Assembly (NCBI GenBank): GCA_963783645.1
Contig: CAWAOH010000016.1
Location: forward strand, 11,782 to 75,781
Source of the DNA: Candidatus Bathyarchaeota archaeon
GTDB taxonomy: Archaea; Thermoproteota; Bathyarchaeia; 40CM-2-53-6
Length of the DNA: 64,000 bases
Direction of reading: 5' to 3'
In this document: positions 1-57,961 of the stretch, one piece after another
How positions within the stretch are numbered: position 1 is the stretch's first letter
Layout: each line of letters starts with the position of its first letter
Notes under the pieces: model-generated
What the model was told of the DNA's origin: nothing
The model's input: the letters and a program-made list of their open reading frames with translations, nothing else
Database searches by the model: none
Made by a program: the position numbers and the translations under genes

Positions 1-820
1 CTGTCATGTGAGCCGGTAGAGAGCCTGGCGGATCGCCGTTCCATGATCCTTTATCCATAAGTTCCCACGTGCCGAGGATTGGTTTACCGTTGTTAGGACC
101 ATTGGCGGTGTTGTATAGATCGGGCACTCCCAAGTTGTGAGCGAACTCAACACACCAAACACCATTTGGCACATTAGGTGGGTCCTCGAGTTCTGGTACA
201 ACGTTGAATTTCGTGAGAATTGTAGAGTTGGTCTTAACGGCTGCTCCTAGGTATGTTACTGACCAGACATCATCTTTCATTTGACTAGTTTCTTGACCTT
301 TTCCGGAATGTAGGAAGACGAAATAATCGAAATTGTTGAAGTCAACATCTTTCTCTGCCAGAGGCACGGCATCTTCCGCAATATGCCATGATTGGTTTAC
401 TCCACTGCAATCAGGGTCATTGATGCCTTTGCAGTCCCTTCCATAATGAGCTTCAGGATACGGAAGCTTGTACCATCCGTGAACGTCGCCTTGAATGGTC
501 AATTTGCCGTACGATATTTCATGGTAGTACGCTGGCACAGTCCCAAACCAATCCTTCCTTACCTGGGCGATACTCAGCGTGTAGTTGACGTCAGAAAACG
601 CCACAGCGATTACTAGAACCCGTATAACGCCTGAAACGGGAACGAACGTGGGTGCGTAGCCAATTGTGGGAAGTGGCATTGAAGGTGTTGCGAGAGGGAG
701 TAGCGAACGAGCTGCCATCGGACGAATCGATTGCGAGCTGACATTTGATGCCACGCTAGATGCAGACAAGACTGAGAGTAGACACACTAAGAGGGCTCTT
801 TCCCGTAGCGTTAAGCGCAT
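1..820 (-). CDS. Secreted M6 (InhA-like) metalloprotease homologue, N-terminal part (runs off left edge); zinc motif degenerate (VEFAH instead of HExxH)
   Basis: My own minus-strand translation: ATG at 820-818, open to position 1. It is absent from the ORF track because there is no stop in the window. N-terminus MRLTLRERALLVCLLSVLSASSVAS looks like a signal peptide. RVLVIAVAFSD and GVWCVEFAHNLGVPDLYN resemble M6 peptidase blocks. Confidence 0.6.
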   Translation of the reverse strand, partial: MRLTLRERALLVCLLSVLSASSVASNVSSQSIRPMAARSLLPLATPSMPLPTIGYAPTFVPVSGVIRVLVIAVAFSDVNYTLSIAQVRKDWFGTVPAYYHEISYGKLTIQGDVHGWYKLPYPEAHYGRDCKGINDPDCSGVNQSWHIAEDAVPLAEKDVDFNNFDYFVFLHSGKGQETSQMKDDVWSVTYLGAAVKTNSTILTKFNVVPELEDPPNVPNGVWCVEFAHNLGVPDLYNTANGPNNGKPILGTWELMDKGSWNGDPPGSLPAHMT

Positions 821-2178: not shown

Positions 2179-2554
2179 AACTCTCACAAAATGCGGAATC
2201 AGTCAAGTGCTTGTACTAGGGTTCTTCCTGGTAAATCCCCGAGCAAGGTCGGTTGAGGATTCATCCATTACGTTAGGCCATGATGGGTGATGTTAGATCT
2301 CAAACAGATATTCCATTAAGATCGCTACAACGCTCAAAATCACAGACGCCAGGAACGTGCCCTTCATATCAAGAATGAACTGCTTTAGTGATTGGAACAT
2401 TGGCTCGGTATGGACAACATAAGACATAACCTATCTTGACTTGGTGAATCAAATAATCCATCATTTATTTCGCGAGAGCGAACACGTTCAGCTTCAATCA
2501 TCTAGCTTAGGACTTACGTTAAGTAGTTGACCAGAGCTCATTGATGGGGCAGAG

Positions 2555-3361
2555 TTGAACTTGCAGCAAGGTCTAAAAATCGGTCTCATGCAACTCGCAG
2601 CGACAGACTCCAAAAAAGAAAATCTGGAACGTGTCGTATCTGCGACCGAGGTGTCAGAGACCTCAGATCTGCTTGTGTTCCCAGAATACTGTATGGGTTA
2701 CCCGAGCGAAGGAATGTCACGTCGATATTTGGAAGATCTTGCTGAGCCTTTGAACGGAGACTTCGTCAGCAAGGTTGCCGAGAAGAGTAAAGAGAAGCAG
2801 ATTGGCGTTGTCCTTCCCATCTACGAACGATTCAACAGGGACGTGTTTAACACGGCTGTAATCATAGATCGTGGAGAGATTAAGGGTGGCTATCGTAAGA
2901 TTCACCTGTTCGATGCTTTCGGATATAGAGAGTCCGATTTGTTCAAGGCAGGGACTGATCCGGTTCTCTTCAGAGTTCGAGATCTGGCGTTCGGAGTAGT
3001 CATCTGCTACGACCTGAGATTCCCTGAACTAGTAAAGAGCGAAGTAATGTCAGGAGCGCGAGTGGTTGTTGTGCCAGCAGCTTGGTTCCGTGGACCTCTG
3101 AAAGAGGAACAGTGGCAGACTCTTCTAATGGCACGGGCACAGGAGAATACGAGCTATGTGATTGGGGTTGGTAATGCGAACGAAGCCTTCGTGGGGAGGA
3201 GCATGGTCGTGGATCCGTTGGGAGTCAAAGTTTTGGATCTAGGATCTGGAGACCGAGTTGGGTTCTATGAAATTCATGATAATCAAGTAACTGAGGCTCG
3301 GGAGAAGTTGCCGGTGCTCCAGCAATCGACTTCGCTTAATATTCGCTGCCAACAGCTCTAG
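2555..3361 (+). CDS. Carbon-nitrogen hydrolase (nitrilase superfamily)
   Basis: 268-aa ORF. Glu-Lys-Cys triad context: VFPEY, RKIHLFD, VVICYDLRFPE. Confidence 0.8.
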   Translation: MNLQQGLKIGLMQLAATDSKKENLERVVSATEVSETSDLLVFPEYCMGYPSEGMSRRYLEDLAEPLNGDFVSKVAEKSKEKQIGVVLPIYERFNRDVFNTAVIIDRGEIKGGYRKIHLFDAFGYRESDLFKAGTDPVLFRVRDLAFGVVICYDLRFPELVKSEVMSGARVVVVPAAWFRGPLKEEQWQTLLMARAQENTSYVIGVGNANEAFVGRSMVVDPLGVKVLDLGSGDRVGFYEIHDNQVTEAREKLPVLQQSTSLNIRCQQL

Positions 3362-52929: not shown

Positions 52930-55143
52930 TTAGTCTACGAAGTCCTGTGGAGTCGGCGGCTCGGGTGCTAGGCCCTTACGTTTGCGGATATCAGTGATTA
53001 CTTGAGTTACTAGTGACTGCGGAACTGGTGCCCAACGTGCAAATTCTAGTCCCCAAAATGCTCTACCCTGAGATTGGCTTCGCATCACTTCTGACAGGTC
53101 GAATGTTTCAGCAGTAGGTAATTCTCCGACTACATATACAAGGTGCCCTCGTTGATCAACCGAGACTATTTTACCCCGCTTTTGGGAGATCACACTTGTG
53201 GCTGCTCCCAGAAGGTCCGGTGGCACCTTAACGGTAATTCTTTGAATCGGCTCTAGGAGTACTGGGTTGGCGCTTAGGAATGCGATGAAGAACGCTCGGC
53301 GACTCATGGGCATAATCTGAGCTGGCCCACGGTGGACAGGATCTTCGTGCAATGATACGTCAGTCAGCGTGACTTTGATGCCACGAATTTGTTCGTATGC
53401 CAGCGGGCCCTCTTTCAGTCCCCACCTGTATCCGCCTAAGATCATTTCCTTGACTTCCTGCAGGTATTGAGCGCCTTTTGTGACCTCTACCAGCATGTTG
53501 CTCCCTTCATCAACACTCCAGACGCCACGTGCCTGGTCCGGCGGCCAGCCTTCATCTCGAAGGATTTTGGCCAGTTCATGTCGATCTTGGTATTCGCCGA
53601 TCTTTCCTTCCTTTATCATATCTACGATCTTGTCCGGAAGCGGCTCAACGGATAGGTAGACCTTGTTATGTTTGTTAGGCGACTTTCCTTCAACCGGTCC
53701 AGCTGATCCCTTAACGCTTTCCCGATAGATGACAATGGGGGTTGTTGTTGCAATCTCGAGACCGGTCTTCGTGATCAATGTTATAGCAATTTCTAAGTGG
53801 AGTGTTCCCATCCCTGCGATCAAATATTCGCCGGTTTCCTCGTTGATCTTAGTTACGAGGTTCGGATCTTCAAGGGTTAATCTTCGAAGAAGTTCAACTA
53901 GCTTCGGTAGATCCCTGCTATACTTCGGCTCTACAGCGATCGTAACGACTGGTTCAGTAACGTAGTGAACCGACTCGAAAGGAGCGATATCCTTCACCGT
54001 TGACAATGTTTCTCCCGATTTGGCAGCATCCAGTCCTAAAAGTGCGGGAATGTTTCCAGCGTTGATAGTCCCAATTATCTCTCTGTACGGCCCCATGAAG
54101 ATGCAGACTTGTTGCACACGTTGGTCAACGCGAGCTCCGAGAAGATGGAATGTTGAACCTTCTTTGATAGTTCCAGAGAATAATCGACCGACCGCTACTA
54201 CTCCGGCCTGTGGGTCAACGACAATGTTCGTGATCGCCATGACCACTGGACCCTCATCATCGCAGTTCATCATGGCCTTGCCAACCTCACTTTCGATGTC
54301 CCCCTTCCAGATCTTCGGAATACGATACCTCTGTGCCACGTGTGGAGGAGGCATCGCTTCAACTGACATGTTCAGTATCGCTTCGTGCAGTGGTGCACGT
54401 TCGCGAAGTTGTGCGACCGTATCTTGTGTGTAAGCGTCAACAACATCCTGGAATTTCACACCCTTCTCCTTTGCTACTTCAGCGTTGAATCCCCATCGAT
54501 CTTTGGCTGAACCCATGGCAACCGTGTTGCCCGCGAAACTAACTTTCCACTTCTCGCGGTATTCAGGCTCCGCATACAATTCAATCAGTCTATTGAATTC
54601 GGTAATAATTCGACTGATTCTTTCCTGAATTTGCTCCGGATTCAATCGGAGTTCTTTGATCAGTCTATCAATCTTGTTGATGTAAAGAACAGGTCTCACT
54701 CTCTCCTCAAGCGCCTGTCTAGTGACCGTTTCAGTCTGAACCATTATCTCTTCGACCGAGTCGACGACAACGACAGCACCGTCAATGGCACGCAGAGAGC
54801 GTGTCACCCTACCGGAGAAGTCAACGTGACCAGGAGTATCGATCAGATTGATGACGTATGGAATTCCATTTCTTTCATGAAGCAAACTAACGTTCGCTGC
54901 TTTGATCGTCATCTGACGTTTCTGTTCTTCCTCCATAAAATCCAGCGCTAGCGCTGTTCCAGCCATTCCAGGAGACAGGAGACCAGCTGCGGCAAGGAGT
55001 GAATCGCTCATCGTCGTCTTTCCGTGATCGACGTGGGCGATGATTCCCATATTTTCCGGACGTAGGTCTACCTACGGCTTACGGATTTGCTCCTTGTTCG
55101 TGATGATCTTCTGTATTTCAGTTGTGCTCTTGTAGCGGGGCAT
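52930..55143 (-). CDS. fusA: Translation elongation factor aEF-2, interrupted by a 27-nt insert carrying an in-frame TAG
   Basis: Track ORF 52930..55050 starts MGIIAHVDHGKTT and lacks the N-terminus. Upstream in the same frame, ATG 55143 encodes MPRYKSTTEIQKIITNKEQIR, then KP-TAG-VDLRPE. Also DTPGHVDF and the diphthamide-site HRGPAQ. Confidence 0.9.
55053..55079 (-). other. Candidate 27-nt bulge-helix-bulge intron inside aEF-2
   Basis: See the first finding. Central helix UCCG:CGGA, bulges UAA and AAA, and an internal hairpin. Excision gives ...EQIRNMGIIAHVDHGKTT. Confidence 0.55.
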
Positions 55144-55312
55144 TTGTACTCAACTTTCTGTGAAATTGTGATGGCAACATGACTAAATGTCATTAAAGCA
55201 TTGCTGTTGAAGACCTCACCACAACAAGGATGCAAACAAAGGGGAAAAAGAGGACTGCCTGAGAAAGTTAGCAACCGATTTCGATCGGATCCACATTCGA
55301 GCTGAGCCAACG

Positions 55313-56341
55313 TTGGGCTTCAACCTTACGCCCATAGTGGTCAAGCAACGTCTTACGCTGAACGAGCTTTGGGGGAGAGTTCTTGCTGTAGATGCAAACA
55401 ACATGCTTTACCAATTTCTGGCTCTAATCCGGATGCGTGATGGTAAGCCATTTACCGACTCCGCAGGGCACGTCACGTCACATTTGATAGGTCTTGTTCT
55501 CAGGACAACTCGCCTGATCGCTGAATTTGATATTCGCCCTGTGTTCGTGTTTGACGGAAAGCCTCCGGCACAGAAAATGCGAACTCTTGAGAAACGGCAT
55601 TTCGCTCGCGACAAGGCTAGGAGGGATTGGGAGCTCGCTGTAGGCCGGGGTGACTATGCCACTGCAATGTCAAAGGCTGTACGCATGGATTCCTTGACGC
55701 ATGAGATGAAGGAAGATGCAAAGCGAGCACTGTCACTACTTGGTATACCTACGATCCAAGCTCCTCAAGAAGGCGAAGCTCAAGCCGCTCACATGGCTAG
55801 ACGCGGAGACGTCTGGGCTGTCAACAGTCGCGACTATGACTCTGTATTATTCGGTTCTCCCCGCATGATTCGCTATTTGACAATATCAGGCCAAGAGTAT
55901 CTTCCAAGCAAGGGCGTGTCCCGGCCTCTCATCCCCGAGCTCATTGATCTTCAGAAAATGCTAGCGGCGTTGCATATCACGCTGGAACAGTTAGTTGACT
56001 TGGCAATACTCGTTGGAACGGATTTCAACGAGGGCGTTCGAGGGGTCGGACCGAAAACCGCATTGAAACTGATCAAGAAACACCACACGCTGGAGAATTT
56101 TCCGACGGAAATTATAGAGAAGCTCCCGCAGGACTTGGAAGGACTACGTGACTTGTTTCTTCATCCAGAGGTAACGAATGAGTACGATCTGCGTTTTTCG
56201 GCGACTGATGAAGAAGGACTTGTTCAGTTCTTATGTAGGAAAAGAGGTTTCGCAGCTGATAAGTTAGATCTTGCGATTCAGCGAATGCGACTCTTCAGGG
56301 CTCGAAGTTCGAAACTGAGTTCGTGGTTTGATTCGAAATGA
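55313..56341 (+). CDS. fen: Flap endonuclease FEN1
   Basis: 342 aa, TTG start. MGFNLTPIV..., AVDANNMLYQFL, QAPQEGEAQAAHM, VGTDFNEGVRGVGPKTALKL. Confidence 0.9.
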   Translation: MGFNLTPIVVKQRLTLNELWGRVLAVDANNMLYQFLALIRMRDGKPFTDSAGHVTSHLIGLVLRTTRLIAEFDIRPVFVFDGKPPAQKMRTLEKRHFARDKARRDWELAVGRGDYATAMSKAVRMDSLTHEMKEDAKRALSLLGIPTIQAPQEGEAQAAHMARRGDVWAVNSRDYDSVLFGSPRMIRYLTISGQEYLPSKGVSRPLIPELIDLQKMLAALHITLEQLVDLAILVGTDFNEGVRGVGPKTALKLIKKHHTLENFPTEIIEKLPQDLEGLRDLFLHPEVTNEYDLRFSATDEEGLVQFLCRKRGFAADKLDLAIQRMRLFRARSSKLSSWFDSK

Positions 56342-57961
56342 CCAACGTGCCTCAAACTCCTTTTTCAGATTTTGTTAACATATGCAGGCAGATTGAATCG
56401 ACTACGAAGAGGAACCAAAAGGTCGCAGTCTTAGCTAGCTTCCTAAAGTCGCTACACCCTGCTGAGATAATCCCGGCGGCCACCTTTTTCTCGGGACACG
56501 CCTTTCCAGAATCCGACGAACGTGTACTAGATGTTGGCGGTCGAACCATCTGGAAGATGGACAGGAAAACCAACCAATCAACCTTGGTCGTCCAACCTGT
56601 AGCTCTGTTGGACGTGTACGAAACCTTCGGCCGGATTGCCGAAGCTTCTGGTTCTGGTTCCCGTCAGAGAAAAGAGGCGCTTCTGGAGACACTGCTAGGT
56701 CGTCTGGGCGCTTCGGATGCCGAATACCTGATGAGAATTATCTTCGGTGAAATGCGCATCGGAGCCGTAGAAGGCGTAGTGCTTGAGGCGATTGCTCTTG
56801 GGAGTAACCTTCAGCTGGATGATGTGAGGCGAGCGTACATGCTCCTAGGCGATCTCGGGCGTGTTGCAAAACTCTGCCTGACCGAAGGATTCACTGGAGT
56901 GCAAGCAGTTGGTGTACAACTCTTCGTTCCAATAAGACCAATGCTTGCCGAGATGGCGCAGGATATAGAGGAGGTACTCAGAGAGCACGGAGGAATCACT
57001 GCCCTCGAATACAAATACGACGGGGCAAGAATTCAAATTCACGGAAAAGACGAAATCATCCGAATCTTCAGTCGTAGACTGACTGAAGTAACGGACAGCC
57101 TTCCAGATATCGTGAGGTTGGTTAGGGATGGAATCTTGCCCGGAACAAGACAGTTCCTCGTGGAAGGAGAAGTTGTGGCTGTGGCACTAGATGGTAGACC
57201 ATATCCGTTCCAGGAGTTGATGAGACGCTTCAGGCGCGTCCACGATAGTTCAATCAATGTCAGCGCAAATCCCACTCAGACTTCACCTCTTCGATATCAT
57301 CTATCTCAACGGTAAGATGCTGATAGACGCGTCCAACGATGACCGTTGGACAACCCTGCGAACTCTTGTTGGGCCCGAGTTGCTGGCAACTAGAATAGTG
57401 ACTTCCAAAGTGGAGGATGCGAAGGTACTGATGGAGCAGGCAATTCGTTCTGGCCATGAAGGAATAATGGCAAAGGATTTGAAAAGCAATTATACGCCTG
57501 GCGTACGCGGAAAGAAATGGTTCAAGATCAAGCCAGTCGAAACACTTGACGTCGCGATCATAGCTGCAGACTGGGGCTCCGGCAGAAGAAAGGGATGGTT
57601 GAGCAACTACCATCTTGCAGTCCGAGATGACCAAACGGGAGAATATCGGGTAGTTGGGAAGACTTTCAAAGGTCTTACAGACGATGAATTTGCAACGGTC
57701 ACTGAGAAGCTTTTGGAATTAAAGACGCGGGAAACTGAATACACCGTGTATGTTAAGCCGTCAATCGTTGTGGAAGTCGCATTCAACGAAATACAGAGGA
57801 GCCCGCACTACGTGTCCAAGTTCGCTCTACGATTCGCCCGTATTACCAGATTCCGAGATGACAAACGTCCAGAAGATGCAGATACTCTGAACAGATTGGA
57901 GACTCTTTATGAAAATCAGTTCAAGTTCAAGGCAAAGACCAACTTCGGTGTCGACTCATGA
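56338..57961 (+). CDS. lig: ATP-dependent DNA ligase, frameshifted as assembled (+1 near 57265)
   Basis: EYKYDGARIQIH (KxDG), LVEGEVVA, then FQELMRRFRRVHD / SAQIPLRLHLFDIIYLNG in overlapping ORFs 56338..57315 and 57257..57961. Confidence 0.9.

Follow-up and report, generated by a model that had tools for sequence, protein, structure and literature searches.

The precursor mRNA of cbf5, which encodes the pseudouridine synthase aCBF5, reportedly contains a bulge–helix–bulge (BHB) intron in Crenarchaeota, as described by Watanabe in 2002 and by Yoshinari in 2006. The cbf5 intron is short, often has a relaxed motif and is linked to a hetero-oligomeric tRNA-splicing endonuclease (EndA), and Cenarchaeum and Nitrosopumilus are listed as being without it (Yokobori 2009, PMC2738675). 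In 2020, it still counted as the only BHB intron of an archaeal mRNA besides a new one in the 5′ untranslated region (UTR) of a Haloferax mRNA (PMC7714728). Here we describe a 27-nt insert in the gene for archaeal elongation factor 2 (aEF-2) on the minus strand of a 64,000-nt stretch of DNA from a soil archaeon of the Bathyarchaeia (contig CAWAOH010000016.1), hereafter called the window. Comparison with related genes makes it very probable that the insert is a genuine BHB intron of the endonuclease-spliced type, with its excision predicted from the sequence.

The aEF-2 intron is the same kind of element as the known BHB introns and involves no new mechanism. Like the cbf5 intron, it is short, lies inside a coding region, has a relaxed BHB motif and shows a patchy presence and absence suggesting both gain and loss; a further likeness is that the cbf5 intron is confined to lineages with a hetero-oligomeric EndA of broad specificity. 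The host gene, in contrast, is not a member of the cbf5 family but encodes an essential GTPase of Bathyarchaeia and Nitrososphaeria, and the intron lies 64 nt into the open reading frame (ORF) just before the P-loop codons, with a stop codon of the upstream frame in every copy. Unlike cbf5, aEF-2 also has a second intron site, and one genome has two introns in this gene; splicing of cbf5 has been shown by experiment, whereas the aEF-2 case is known from sequence comparison. The Haloferax volcanii HVO_1309 intron resembles that of aEF-2 in being a BHB in an mRNA and, as demonstrated there (PMC7714728) and predicted for aEF-2, a substrate of the tRNA-splicing endonuclease, but it lies in a euryarchaeal untranslated leader and interrupts no frame, whereas the aEF-2 intron splits a codon. 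The original prediction of the intron had held that cbf5 is essentially the only established case; cbf5 is indeed the sole precedent in a coding region, but the BHB intron in the HVO_1309 5′ UTR has been shown as well (PMC7714728). Archaeal tRNA introns, which occur at canonical and non-canonical positions and have lengths of 11–175 nt (PMC2738675), share with the aEF-2 intron the 4-bp helix, the 3-nt bulges 3′ of each strand, the cut sites (predicted in aEF-2) after bulge nucleotide 2, the size range and a hairpin-like body, but the exons of aEF-2 are mRNA and the exon-side strand of the helix is made of codons, so that structure and coding constrain the same bases. The splicing of HAC1 and XBP1 by IRE1 and tRNA ligase or RtcB (PMC13149111) is likewise a spliceosome-independent excision of a short mRNA intron that alters the protein made, although that system uses IRE1 and twin stem-loops and is regulated by stress. 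Full-text searches of the open-access literature found no report of an intron in aEF-2, which is no proof of absence; going by that literature, aEF-2 would be the second archaeal protein-coding gene family with a tRNA-type intron.

The split aEF-2 gene and its relatives

The start codon ATG at 55143..55141 on the minus strand of the window and the following 20 codons encode MPRYKSTTEIQKIITNKEQIR. They are followed by AAG CCG TAG, by GTA GAC CTA CGT CCG GAA AAT, and then by ATG GGA ATC ATC GCC CAC GTC GAT CAC GGA AAG ACG ACG, whose ATG at 55050 is in the same frame as the ATG of exon 1 with the TAG in between. The ORF finder lists only the frame 52930..55050, which encodes 706 aa with the N-terminus MGIIAHVDHGKTT. 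The exon-2 protein carries PF00009, PF03144, PF14492, PF03764 and PF00679, the full Pfam set of EF-2, and the homologues of the 706-aa protein are archaeal EF-2, the nearest named ones being from Candidatus Bathyarchaeia. Removal of 55079..55053 gives ...EQIRNMGIIAHVDHGKTT, which is colinear without a gap with intronless homologues such as VPRFKSSQDILRIVSNKDQIRNMGIIAHVDHGKTT of locus L029; these homologues agree with the colinearity claimed by the original prediction, which had given the crenarchaeal aEF-2 N-terminus correctly. The spliced product has a length of 728 aa and reads ...EQIR-N-MGIIAHVDHGKTT..., and the predicted junction of the spliced RNA is ...CAAAUCCGUA/AUAUGGGAAUC..., with the junction motif CGUAAUAUGG. 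The corresponding tryptic junction peptide is predicted to be NMGIIAHVDHGK, and the intron splits its Asn codon. Upstream of exon 1, an A/T-rich box (GCTTTAATGA, GCATAAATGA, GTATAAAAG or GTTTAAAAGT) is seen at a similar distance in most of the 38 intron-bearing loci described below, the variants being judged by eye from the upstream sequences, of which a regular expression matched only some. At the Shine–Dalgarno-like site, AGTTGAG is kept in the clade of the window, and GGAGGA is found at the equivalent place in its sister clade.

To survey relatives, the DNA upstream of the G1 motif was read at loci from species-representative genomes, which were the 80 best of 251 matches; of these, L002, L008 and L003 derive from SPRUCE and Microflora Danica samples of peat and soil. 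Thirty-eight loci, namely the window and 37 public assemblies, are interrupted by an insert at one shared site, which lies between ...QIR and N-[IMF]-G-[IV]-I-A-H-V-D-H-G-K-T-T, and one further locus (L053) has a site-1 insert beyond these 38. The carriers are mostly Bathyarchaeia, together with four Nitrososphaeria (L047, L050, L054 and L057). Thirty-two loci are free of the insert and colinear with the spliced sequence of the window. The insert is 25, 26, 27, 28, 29, 30, 31, 32 or 45 nt long, and the three length classes modulo 3 comprise 14, 12 and 12 loci, so that its length is not a multiple of three in 24 of the 38. A frame-blind search for a strict BHB (a helix of 4 bp, bulges of 3 nt and cleavage after base 2 of each bulge) placed its top match at the same nucleotide in most insert loci, and splicing there restores MPRYK...QIRN[IM]GIIAHVD. 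An assembly artefact, which the original prediction had allowed for, is thus answered by 37 further independent assemblies with the insert at the same site. The same prediction had also considered orthologues that carry the insert as open coding sequence. All 38 copies contain a stop and 24 have a length that is not a multiple of three, the sole apparent exception being protein P0125 of locus L081 (ENA ERZ25039509, contig_189555), a close relative in which a 27-nt insert is open (QIR-RRRLVHSPEY-MGII). This contig was rejected as counter-evidence: it has lost one A from the bulge run, its EF-2 is frameshifted at about residue 113 and its FEN1 gene is split in two, and because of these other frameshifts and the lost A, the open insert is read as a sequencing error.

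The canonical cuts assemble the codon AAT (Asn) in all 38 loci whatever the length of the intron, as expected from the proposal that cleavage inside both bulges yields the in-frame junction. Intronless homologues invariably have Asn here. In unspliced RNA, the codon in the frame of exon 2 would instead be Tyr in 19 loci, Asp in 10, Asn in 6, His in 2 and Cys in 1, that is, a residue other than Asn in 32 of the 38. Exon 1 is under coding selection, judging from mean pairwise differences of 0.19, 0.14 and 0.445 at codon positions 1, 2 and 3, respectively. Nearly all loci begin exon 1 with ATG, GTG or TTG at a shared position, where L022 has CTG and L057 has TCG.

The intron has left a mark on protein annotation. 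Close relatives are annotated as proteins of 706/707 aa or 693/694 aa that start at an internal Met, and relatives at 74–79% identity have 728–730 aa and cover the whole spliced query. In the sister (NIG) clade, the codon after Asn is ATC, ATT or ATA and the next Met lies after the P-loop; because exon 2 is without an earlier start codon there, the 693/694-aa calls begin after GKTT and lose the P-loop. EF-2 without its P-loop cannot work as a GTPase. Among the proteins P0001–P0120, database entries of EF-2 are missing 22 N-terminal residues (706/707 aa) or 35 including the P-loop (693/694 aa), a systematic truncation that would arise because gene callers are blind to the intron.

Every one of the 38 introns has a stop codon in the frame of exon 1, which is TAG in 36 and TGA in two (L047 and L054); in 37 loci it occupies the third codon past Arg, and in L057 the fourth. 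In the other two frames of the intron, stops are only sporadic. TAG persists even where it has no pairing partners, since columns 20–21 are unpaired in 14 of 31 sequences. These observations suggest that the stop has been selected to end translation of unspliced RNA, with the count inflated by shared ancestry. If the stop were absent, introns with a length divisible by three would lead to an EF-2 lengthened by nine residues immediately ahead of the P-loop.

RNA structure of the insert

The helices were laid out across loci on anchors of protein homology alone. Exon-1 codons for Ile-Arg (A-UC CG-N) make up the 5′ strand of the central helix, whose 3′ strand comes from the end of the intron; the pairing is UCCG/CGGA in most loci. 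It is UUCG/CGAA in L042, L047 and L054, where a synonymous change of the Ile codon to AUU is matched in the intron, and L003 and L021 have a U.G wobble. L050 and L057, in which Arg is encoded by AGG, have the helix CAGG/CCUG shifted by 1 nt, and both predicted cuts shift with it, so that their Asn codon is assembled as AA/T instead of A/AT. All 38 loci have a 5′ bulge of exactly 3 nt, and the 3′ bulge (AAA in the window) has the right size and position provided that the outer helix forms.

A formal count of pairs was made on 31 distinct sequences in the same register. The central helix is paired in 100% of its 124 cells, and a C–G pair is replaced by U–A in three sequences, giving one compensatory pair. 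Changes on both sides are found in six of the eight pairs of the inner helix. With all helices taken together, 80% of the cells are paired as against at most 51.6% when the partners are slid, and none of 500 shuffles matched the observed covariation score. In agreement with this, RNAalifold, run on untrimmed sequences with its own alignment, predicts de novo the 4-bp helix, the 3-nt bulge of the 5′ strand and the stacked inner helix, with compensatory changes in five of its nine pairs. The helix–bulge pattern is thus kept with compensatory changes across relatives, which was the conservation that the original prediction had looked for. The Ile-Arg codons of intron-bearing genes are ATC CGA in 28, ATC CGT in five, ATT CGA in three and ATC AGG in two, whereas intronless genes use 21 combinations; a constraint of RNA pairing on synonymous sites would be expected to produce such near-fixation.

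In the RNA of the window, the coordinates, base pairs, bulges, hairpin and in-frame TAG (55074..55072) are all present as first described (Table 1). The BHB conformer has a computed energy of −11.5 kcal/mol, compared with −12.6 kcal/mol for the minimum free energy (MFE) fold. Canonical cleavage of a BHB takes place after the second nucleotide of each bulge. By definition, the two 3-nt bulges of the motif lie on opposite strands, and each follows its own strand of the central helix on the 3′ side, which gives the motif a pseudo-two-fold symmetry (PMC5829648). With respect to the flanking helices of a strict hBHBh′ motif, the inner h′ is strong and covarying and the outer h is weak, and the motif is therefore a relaxed, HBh′-like BHB and not a strict one. 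The original description of the outer helix as weak and of the motif as relaxed agrees with two A–U pairs around a mismatch, pairing in 60.5% of the cells and a cost in energy.

Table 1. Coordinates of the aEF-2 gene, its predicted intron and associated elements in the window
Feature	Position	Strand	Remarks
Exon 1 of aEF-2	55143..55080	-	Start codon, 21 codons MPRYKSTTEIQKIITNKEQIR and base 1 of the Asn codon
27-nt BHB intron (predicted)	55079..55053	-	Top match of the frame-blind strict BHB search; frame restored
Exon 2 of aEF-2	55052..52930	-	AT of the Asn codon, then MGIIAHVDHGKTT... to the stop codon
Central 4-bp helix, 5′ strand UCCG	55082..55085	-	From the exon-1 Ile-Arg codons AUC CGU
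Central 4-bp helix, 3′ strand CGGA	55055..55058	-	Last paired bases of the intron
5′ bulge UAA	55079..55081	-	Predicted cut 55080/55079
3′ bulge AAA	55052..55054	-	Predicted cut 55053/55052; closed only by the weak outer helix
Intron-internal hairpin	55059..55078	-	Inner helix h′ GCCGUAGG/CCUACGUC, loop UAGA, one C.U mismatch
Outer exon–exon helix, 5′ strand CAAA	55086..55089	-	Weak: A-U, A.A, A-U, C-G
Outer exon–exon helix, 3′ strand UAUG	55048..55051	-	Partner of CAAA
Stop UAG in exon-1 frame	55072..55074	-	Third codon after Arg
TATA-box-like TTTAAT	55192..55197	-	About 54 nt upstream of the exon-1 start codon; putative promoter element
Shine–Dalgarno-like GUUGAG	55149..55154	-	5 nt upstream of the exon-1 AUG; putative ribosome-binding site

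Several observations weigh against a BHB intron. The outer helix shows no covariation in the 31 sequences, with two invariant A–U pairs around the mismatch and C–G in 11 of 31; it carries no such signal because all its bases are fixed by coding, and its weakness leaves the 3′ bulge poorly closed. Adding the outer pairs changes the computed energy from −11.5 to −8.6 kcal/mol, so this helix costs energy, and the MFE fold of the region contains only the inner hairpin, with a z of −0.9 that is not significant alone. Counted over both strands, the window contains some 1,200 instances of a loose BHB geometry, which is thus common by chance. A tighter scan gave 32 matches as against 28–47 in resamples, which is the random expectation, although a flaw in the script stopped it early and the EF-2 intron is missing from its matches; motif-only BHB scans are useless for finding further introns. 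The counts over 38 loci do not represent 38 independent events because most introns were inherited from a common ancestor. Among 5.8 billion proteins queried with the spliced N-terminus, none of at least 90% identity has an uninterrupted junction. In JGI contigs, a degenerate DNA pattern for such a junction had no match for the clade of the window, and the pattern for the sister clade had three matches, all of them ordinary intronless relatives. The significance of the motif comes from its position because protein homology dictates the site of the junction: when the 27 intron bases were shuffled 200,000 times with the junction so fixed, only three shuffles reached all four central pairs and at least seven of the eight inner pairs.

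Proposed splicing pathway and alternative explanations

An (αβ)2 EndA with a specificity loop and broad specificity is conserved in the TACK archaea (Thaumarchaeota, Crenarchaeota and Aigarchaeota), the Bathyarchaeia not being covered specifically (PMC5829648), and this conservation across TACK agrees with the distribution of the intron. Relaxed motifs outside tRNA can be cut by EndA of the (αβ)2 or ε2 type. A plausible pathway is as follows. A promoter upstream of exon 1 would drive transcription, and in the pre-mRNA the UCCG of the exon-1 Ile-Arg codons would pair with the CGGA of the intron while the rest of the intron forms a hairpin, placing the splice sites in opposite 3-nt bulges. The tRNA-splicing endonuclease, which in TACK lineages would presumably be the (αβ)2 EndA tolerant of relaxed motifs, would cut after the second nucleotide of each bulge, and a ligase, probably of the RtcB type, would join the exons to give the Asn codon A/AT and an mRNA for the 728-aa factor. 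Ribosomes on unspliced RNA would halt at UAG after 23 codons (21 of exon 1, Lys and Pro), and therefore no aberrant EF-2 would be made; this may be what the stop is for.

Cleavage without splicing is one alternative, in which the BHB is real and cut by EndA, but for regulation or degradation and without productive ligation, EF-2 being supplied by another route. EndA does process substrates other than introns, such as rRNA precursors (PMC7714728), but cleavage alone would detach exon 1, with the start codon and its 21 conserved codons, from the rest of the only EF-2 gene, and it would leave unexplained why the exact Asn codon is rebuilt in all 38 loci, even after a 1-nt shift of both sites, so that this explanation is highly improbable. 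An equally faint chance is left to the annotated gene model, according to which aEF-2 starts at Met 55050, the 21 codons upstream are those of a small ORF or leader unrelated to it, and no splicing takes place. Gene callers as well as the NCBI and JGI annotations give 706-aa proteins from that Met, and the clade of the window has an ATG there; however, exon 1 matches the N-terminus of intronless aEF-2 colinearly and is under coding selection, a conserved Asn codon is split across the insert, promoter-like and Shine–Dalgarno-like elements lie upstream of exon 1, and the equivalent calls in the sister clade would be without GKTT.

Translation might also overcome the insert: the UAG could be read through or decoded as pyrrolysine, or ribosomes could undergo programmed frameshifting or gene-60-type bypassing. 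In T4 gene 60, bypassing involves a hairpin and a stop codon after the take-off site. The aEF-2 insert similarly presents a stop codon and then a hairpin right after the interruption, and in the window its length is a multiple of three, but the 24 inserts of other lengths and the equal use of the three classes leave no single recoding rule. Readthrough would add nine residues before the P-loop that are absent from intronless homologues, and TGA takes the place of TAG in L047 and L054, contrary to what readthrough of UAG or pyrrolysine would predict. As for bypassing, the codon before exon 2 varies (TAT, GAT, AAT, CAT or TGT), an intact Asn codon is missing in 32 of the 38 loci, and the covariation observed between exon-1 codons and the 3′ end of the intron would not be needed. 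The assembly of AAT together with the lengths not divisible by three excludes all of these routes, with frameshifting excluded in the form of a single rule, and only a very small probability is assigned to this class of explanations.

The least probable alternative, to which we give next to no weight, is an assembly or sequencing artefact or a decaying pseudogene, to which the 1-nt frameshift in the neighbouring DNA ligase gene and the indel errors in the relative L081 might point, but 37 other assemblies, produced in different studies and on different platforms, share the insert, purifying selection acts on both exons (protein identity across the clade is 75–100%), and no second EF-2 locus from the same assemblies, one of them with a contig of 2.36 Mb, is present among the 80 best of the 251 matches, EF-2 being an essential protein. 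A self-splicing intron was considered and rejected: group I and II introns have a ribozyme core of hundreds of nucleotides, and the insert measures 25–45 nt, with no Rfam match in the window. An endonuclease-spliced BHB intron is therefore the reading retained in what follows.

Inheritance, further insertion sites and significance

The Bathyarchaeia with the intron group together when EF-2 proteins are arranged in a neighbour-joining tree: all 33 members of their clade have it, and the adjoining sister clade is intronless. Site 1 is also occupied in a deep-branching Bathyarchaeota metagenome-assembled genome (MAG), L042, and in a group of Nitrososphaeria. This spread on the tree indicates that the BHB intron is old, vertically inherited and stably maintained, and the three groups with an occupied site 1 fit either one origin followed by losses or repeated gain at one site.

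A second BHB site is found in aEF-2 within the P-loop codons, between IIAH and VDHGKTT. It is occupied in L017 from a hot-spring member of the Bathyarchaeia (42 nt, 252..293), in L051 of the Nitrososphaeria (36 nt, 2519..2554) and in L053 of the Nitrososphaeria, which has two introns in one gene, at site 1 (30 nt, 2469..2498) and at site 2 (33 nt, 2519..2551). The top match of the frame-blind strict search restores the G1 motif in L017 and L051, and the site-2 inserts of all three loci contain in-frame stops. In L069 (Thaumarchaeota archaeon KW1-S15_144), a stop-containing insert of about 30 nt lies between VDHGK and TTMSDS at about 2590..2620, with a hairpin CGAGUAUACUCG and a possible 5-bp exon–exon helix CGUAG/CUACG. 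It has no canonical 4-bp helix with 3-nt bulges, gave no match in the strict BHB search and, on inspection by hand, showed no clear BHB; it lies at the insertion point of the inteins described below. This insert could be a third and very relaxed intron site or an assembly problem.

The P-loop of aEF-2 also carries inteins. An intein of about 540 aa (Intein_splicing and LAGLIDADG) is inserted after DHGK in L031, L033 and L085, the last corresponding to protein P0119, and also in P0116 and P0120, and its carriers belong to the intronless clade of Bathyarchaeia. P0119 was considered as a combination of intron and intein, which was rejected because it has the intein alone and belongs to the intronless clade. 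The same few conserved P-loop codons are thus hit by an intein or by BHB introns in different lineages.

Elsewhere in the window, Rfam and tRNA scans over its whole length gave no matches, and an ORF-fusion screen for other introns was too permissive, with 349 candidates that included the EF-2 intron and nothing else convincing. The neighbouring gene on the plus strand (56338..57961) encodes an ATP-dependent DNA ligase in two ORFs of 325 aa and 234 aa, and one extra A (ATC-A-ATG) at 57252..57257 causes the split. A second intron at about 57254 was rejected in view of the 1-nt insertion relative to the intact genes of L001, L002 and L007 (RRFRRVH..IPLRLHLFD); comparison with these genes identifies the split as a simple frameshift that stems from a mutation or an error of assembly. 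Among the relatives, some contigs with an archaeal EF-2 and archaeal FEN1 and DNA ligase neighbours (L001, L006, L007 and L027; P0015 and P0031) sit in MAGs labelled as bacterial, namely as Methylomirabilota, Acidoferrum, Acidiferrales, Saccharimonadales or plain 'bacterium', which is probably binning contamination.

At least two sites at the P-loop codons, one gene with two introns, a stop in every site-1 copy and a helix built from exon codons lead to a more far-reaching hypothesis, which we regard as rather unlikely, that aEF-2 of TACK archaea is a hotspot for endonuclease-spliced mRNA introns and that the site-1 intron acts as a checkpoint and is not a passive passenger. If this were true, synthesis of the translocation factor would depend strictly on the tRNA-splicing machinery (EndA and RtcB), and the system would be an archaeal counterpart of HAC1/XBP1-type splicing that ties the capacity for tRNA maturation to the capacity for translation elongation. 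Protein-coding BHB introns would then be far more widespread in uncultured archaea than cbf5 suggests, hidden by truncated gene calls.

As a second host gene after cbf5, which according to the open-access literature has stood alone since 2002 (PMC7714728), aEF-2 would mean that mRNA splicing by the tRNA endonuclease is no curiosity of one gene. The host is essential, highly expressed and a universal phylogenetic marker, and the predicted intron has been maintained across a class-level clade. The truncated EF-2 entries of Bathyarchaeia and Nitrososphaeria affect marker-gene phylogenies and completeness estimates. The aEF-2 intron may also serve as a test case for the joint constraint of structure and coding on the same bases, for the competition between splicing and coupled translation, and for the question of whether introns and inteins target the same conserved DNA that encodes the P-loop.

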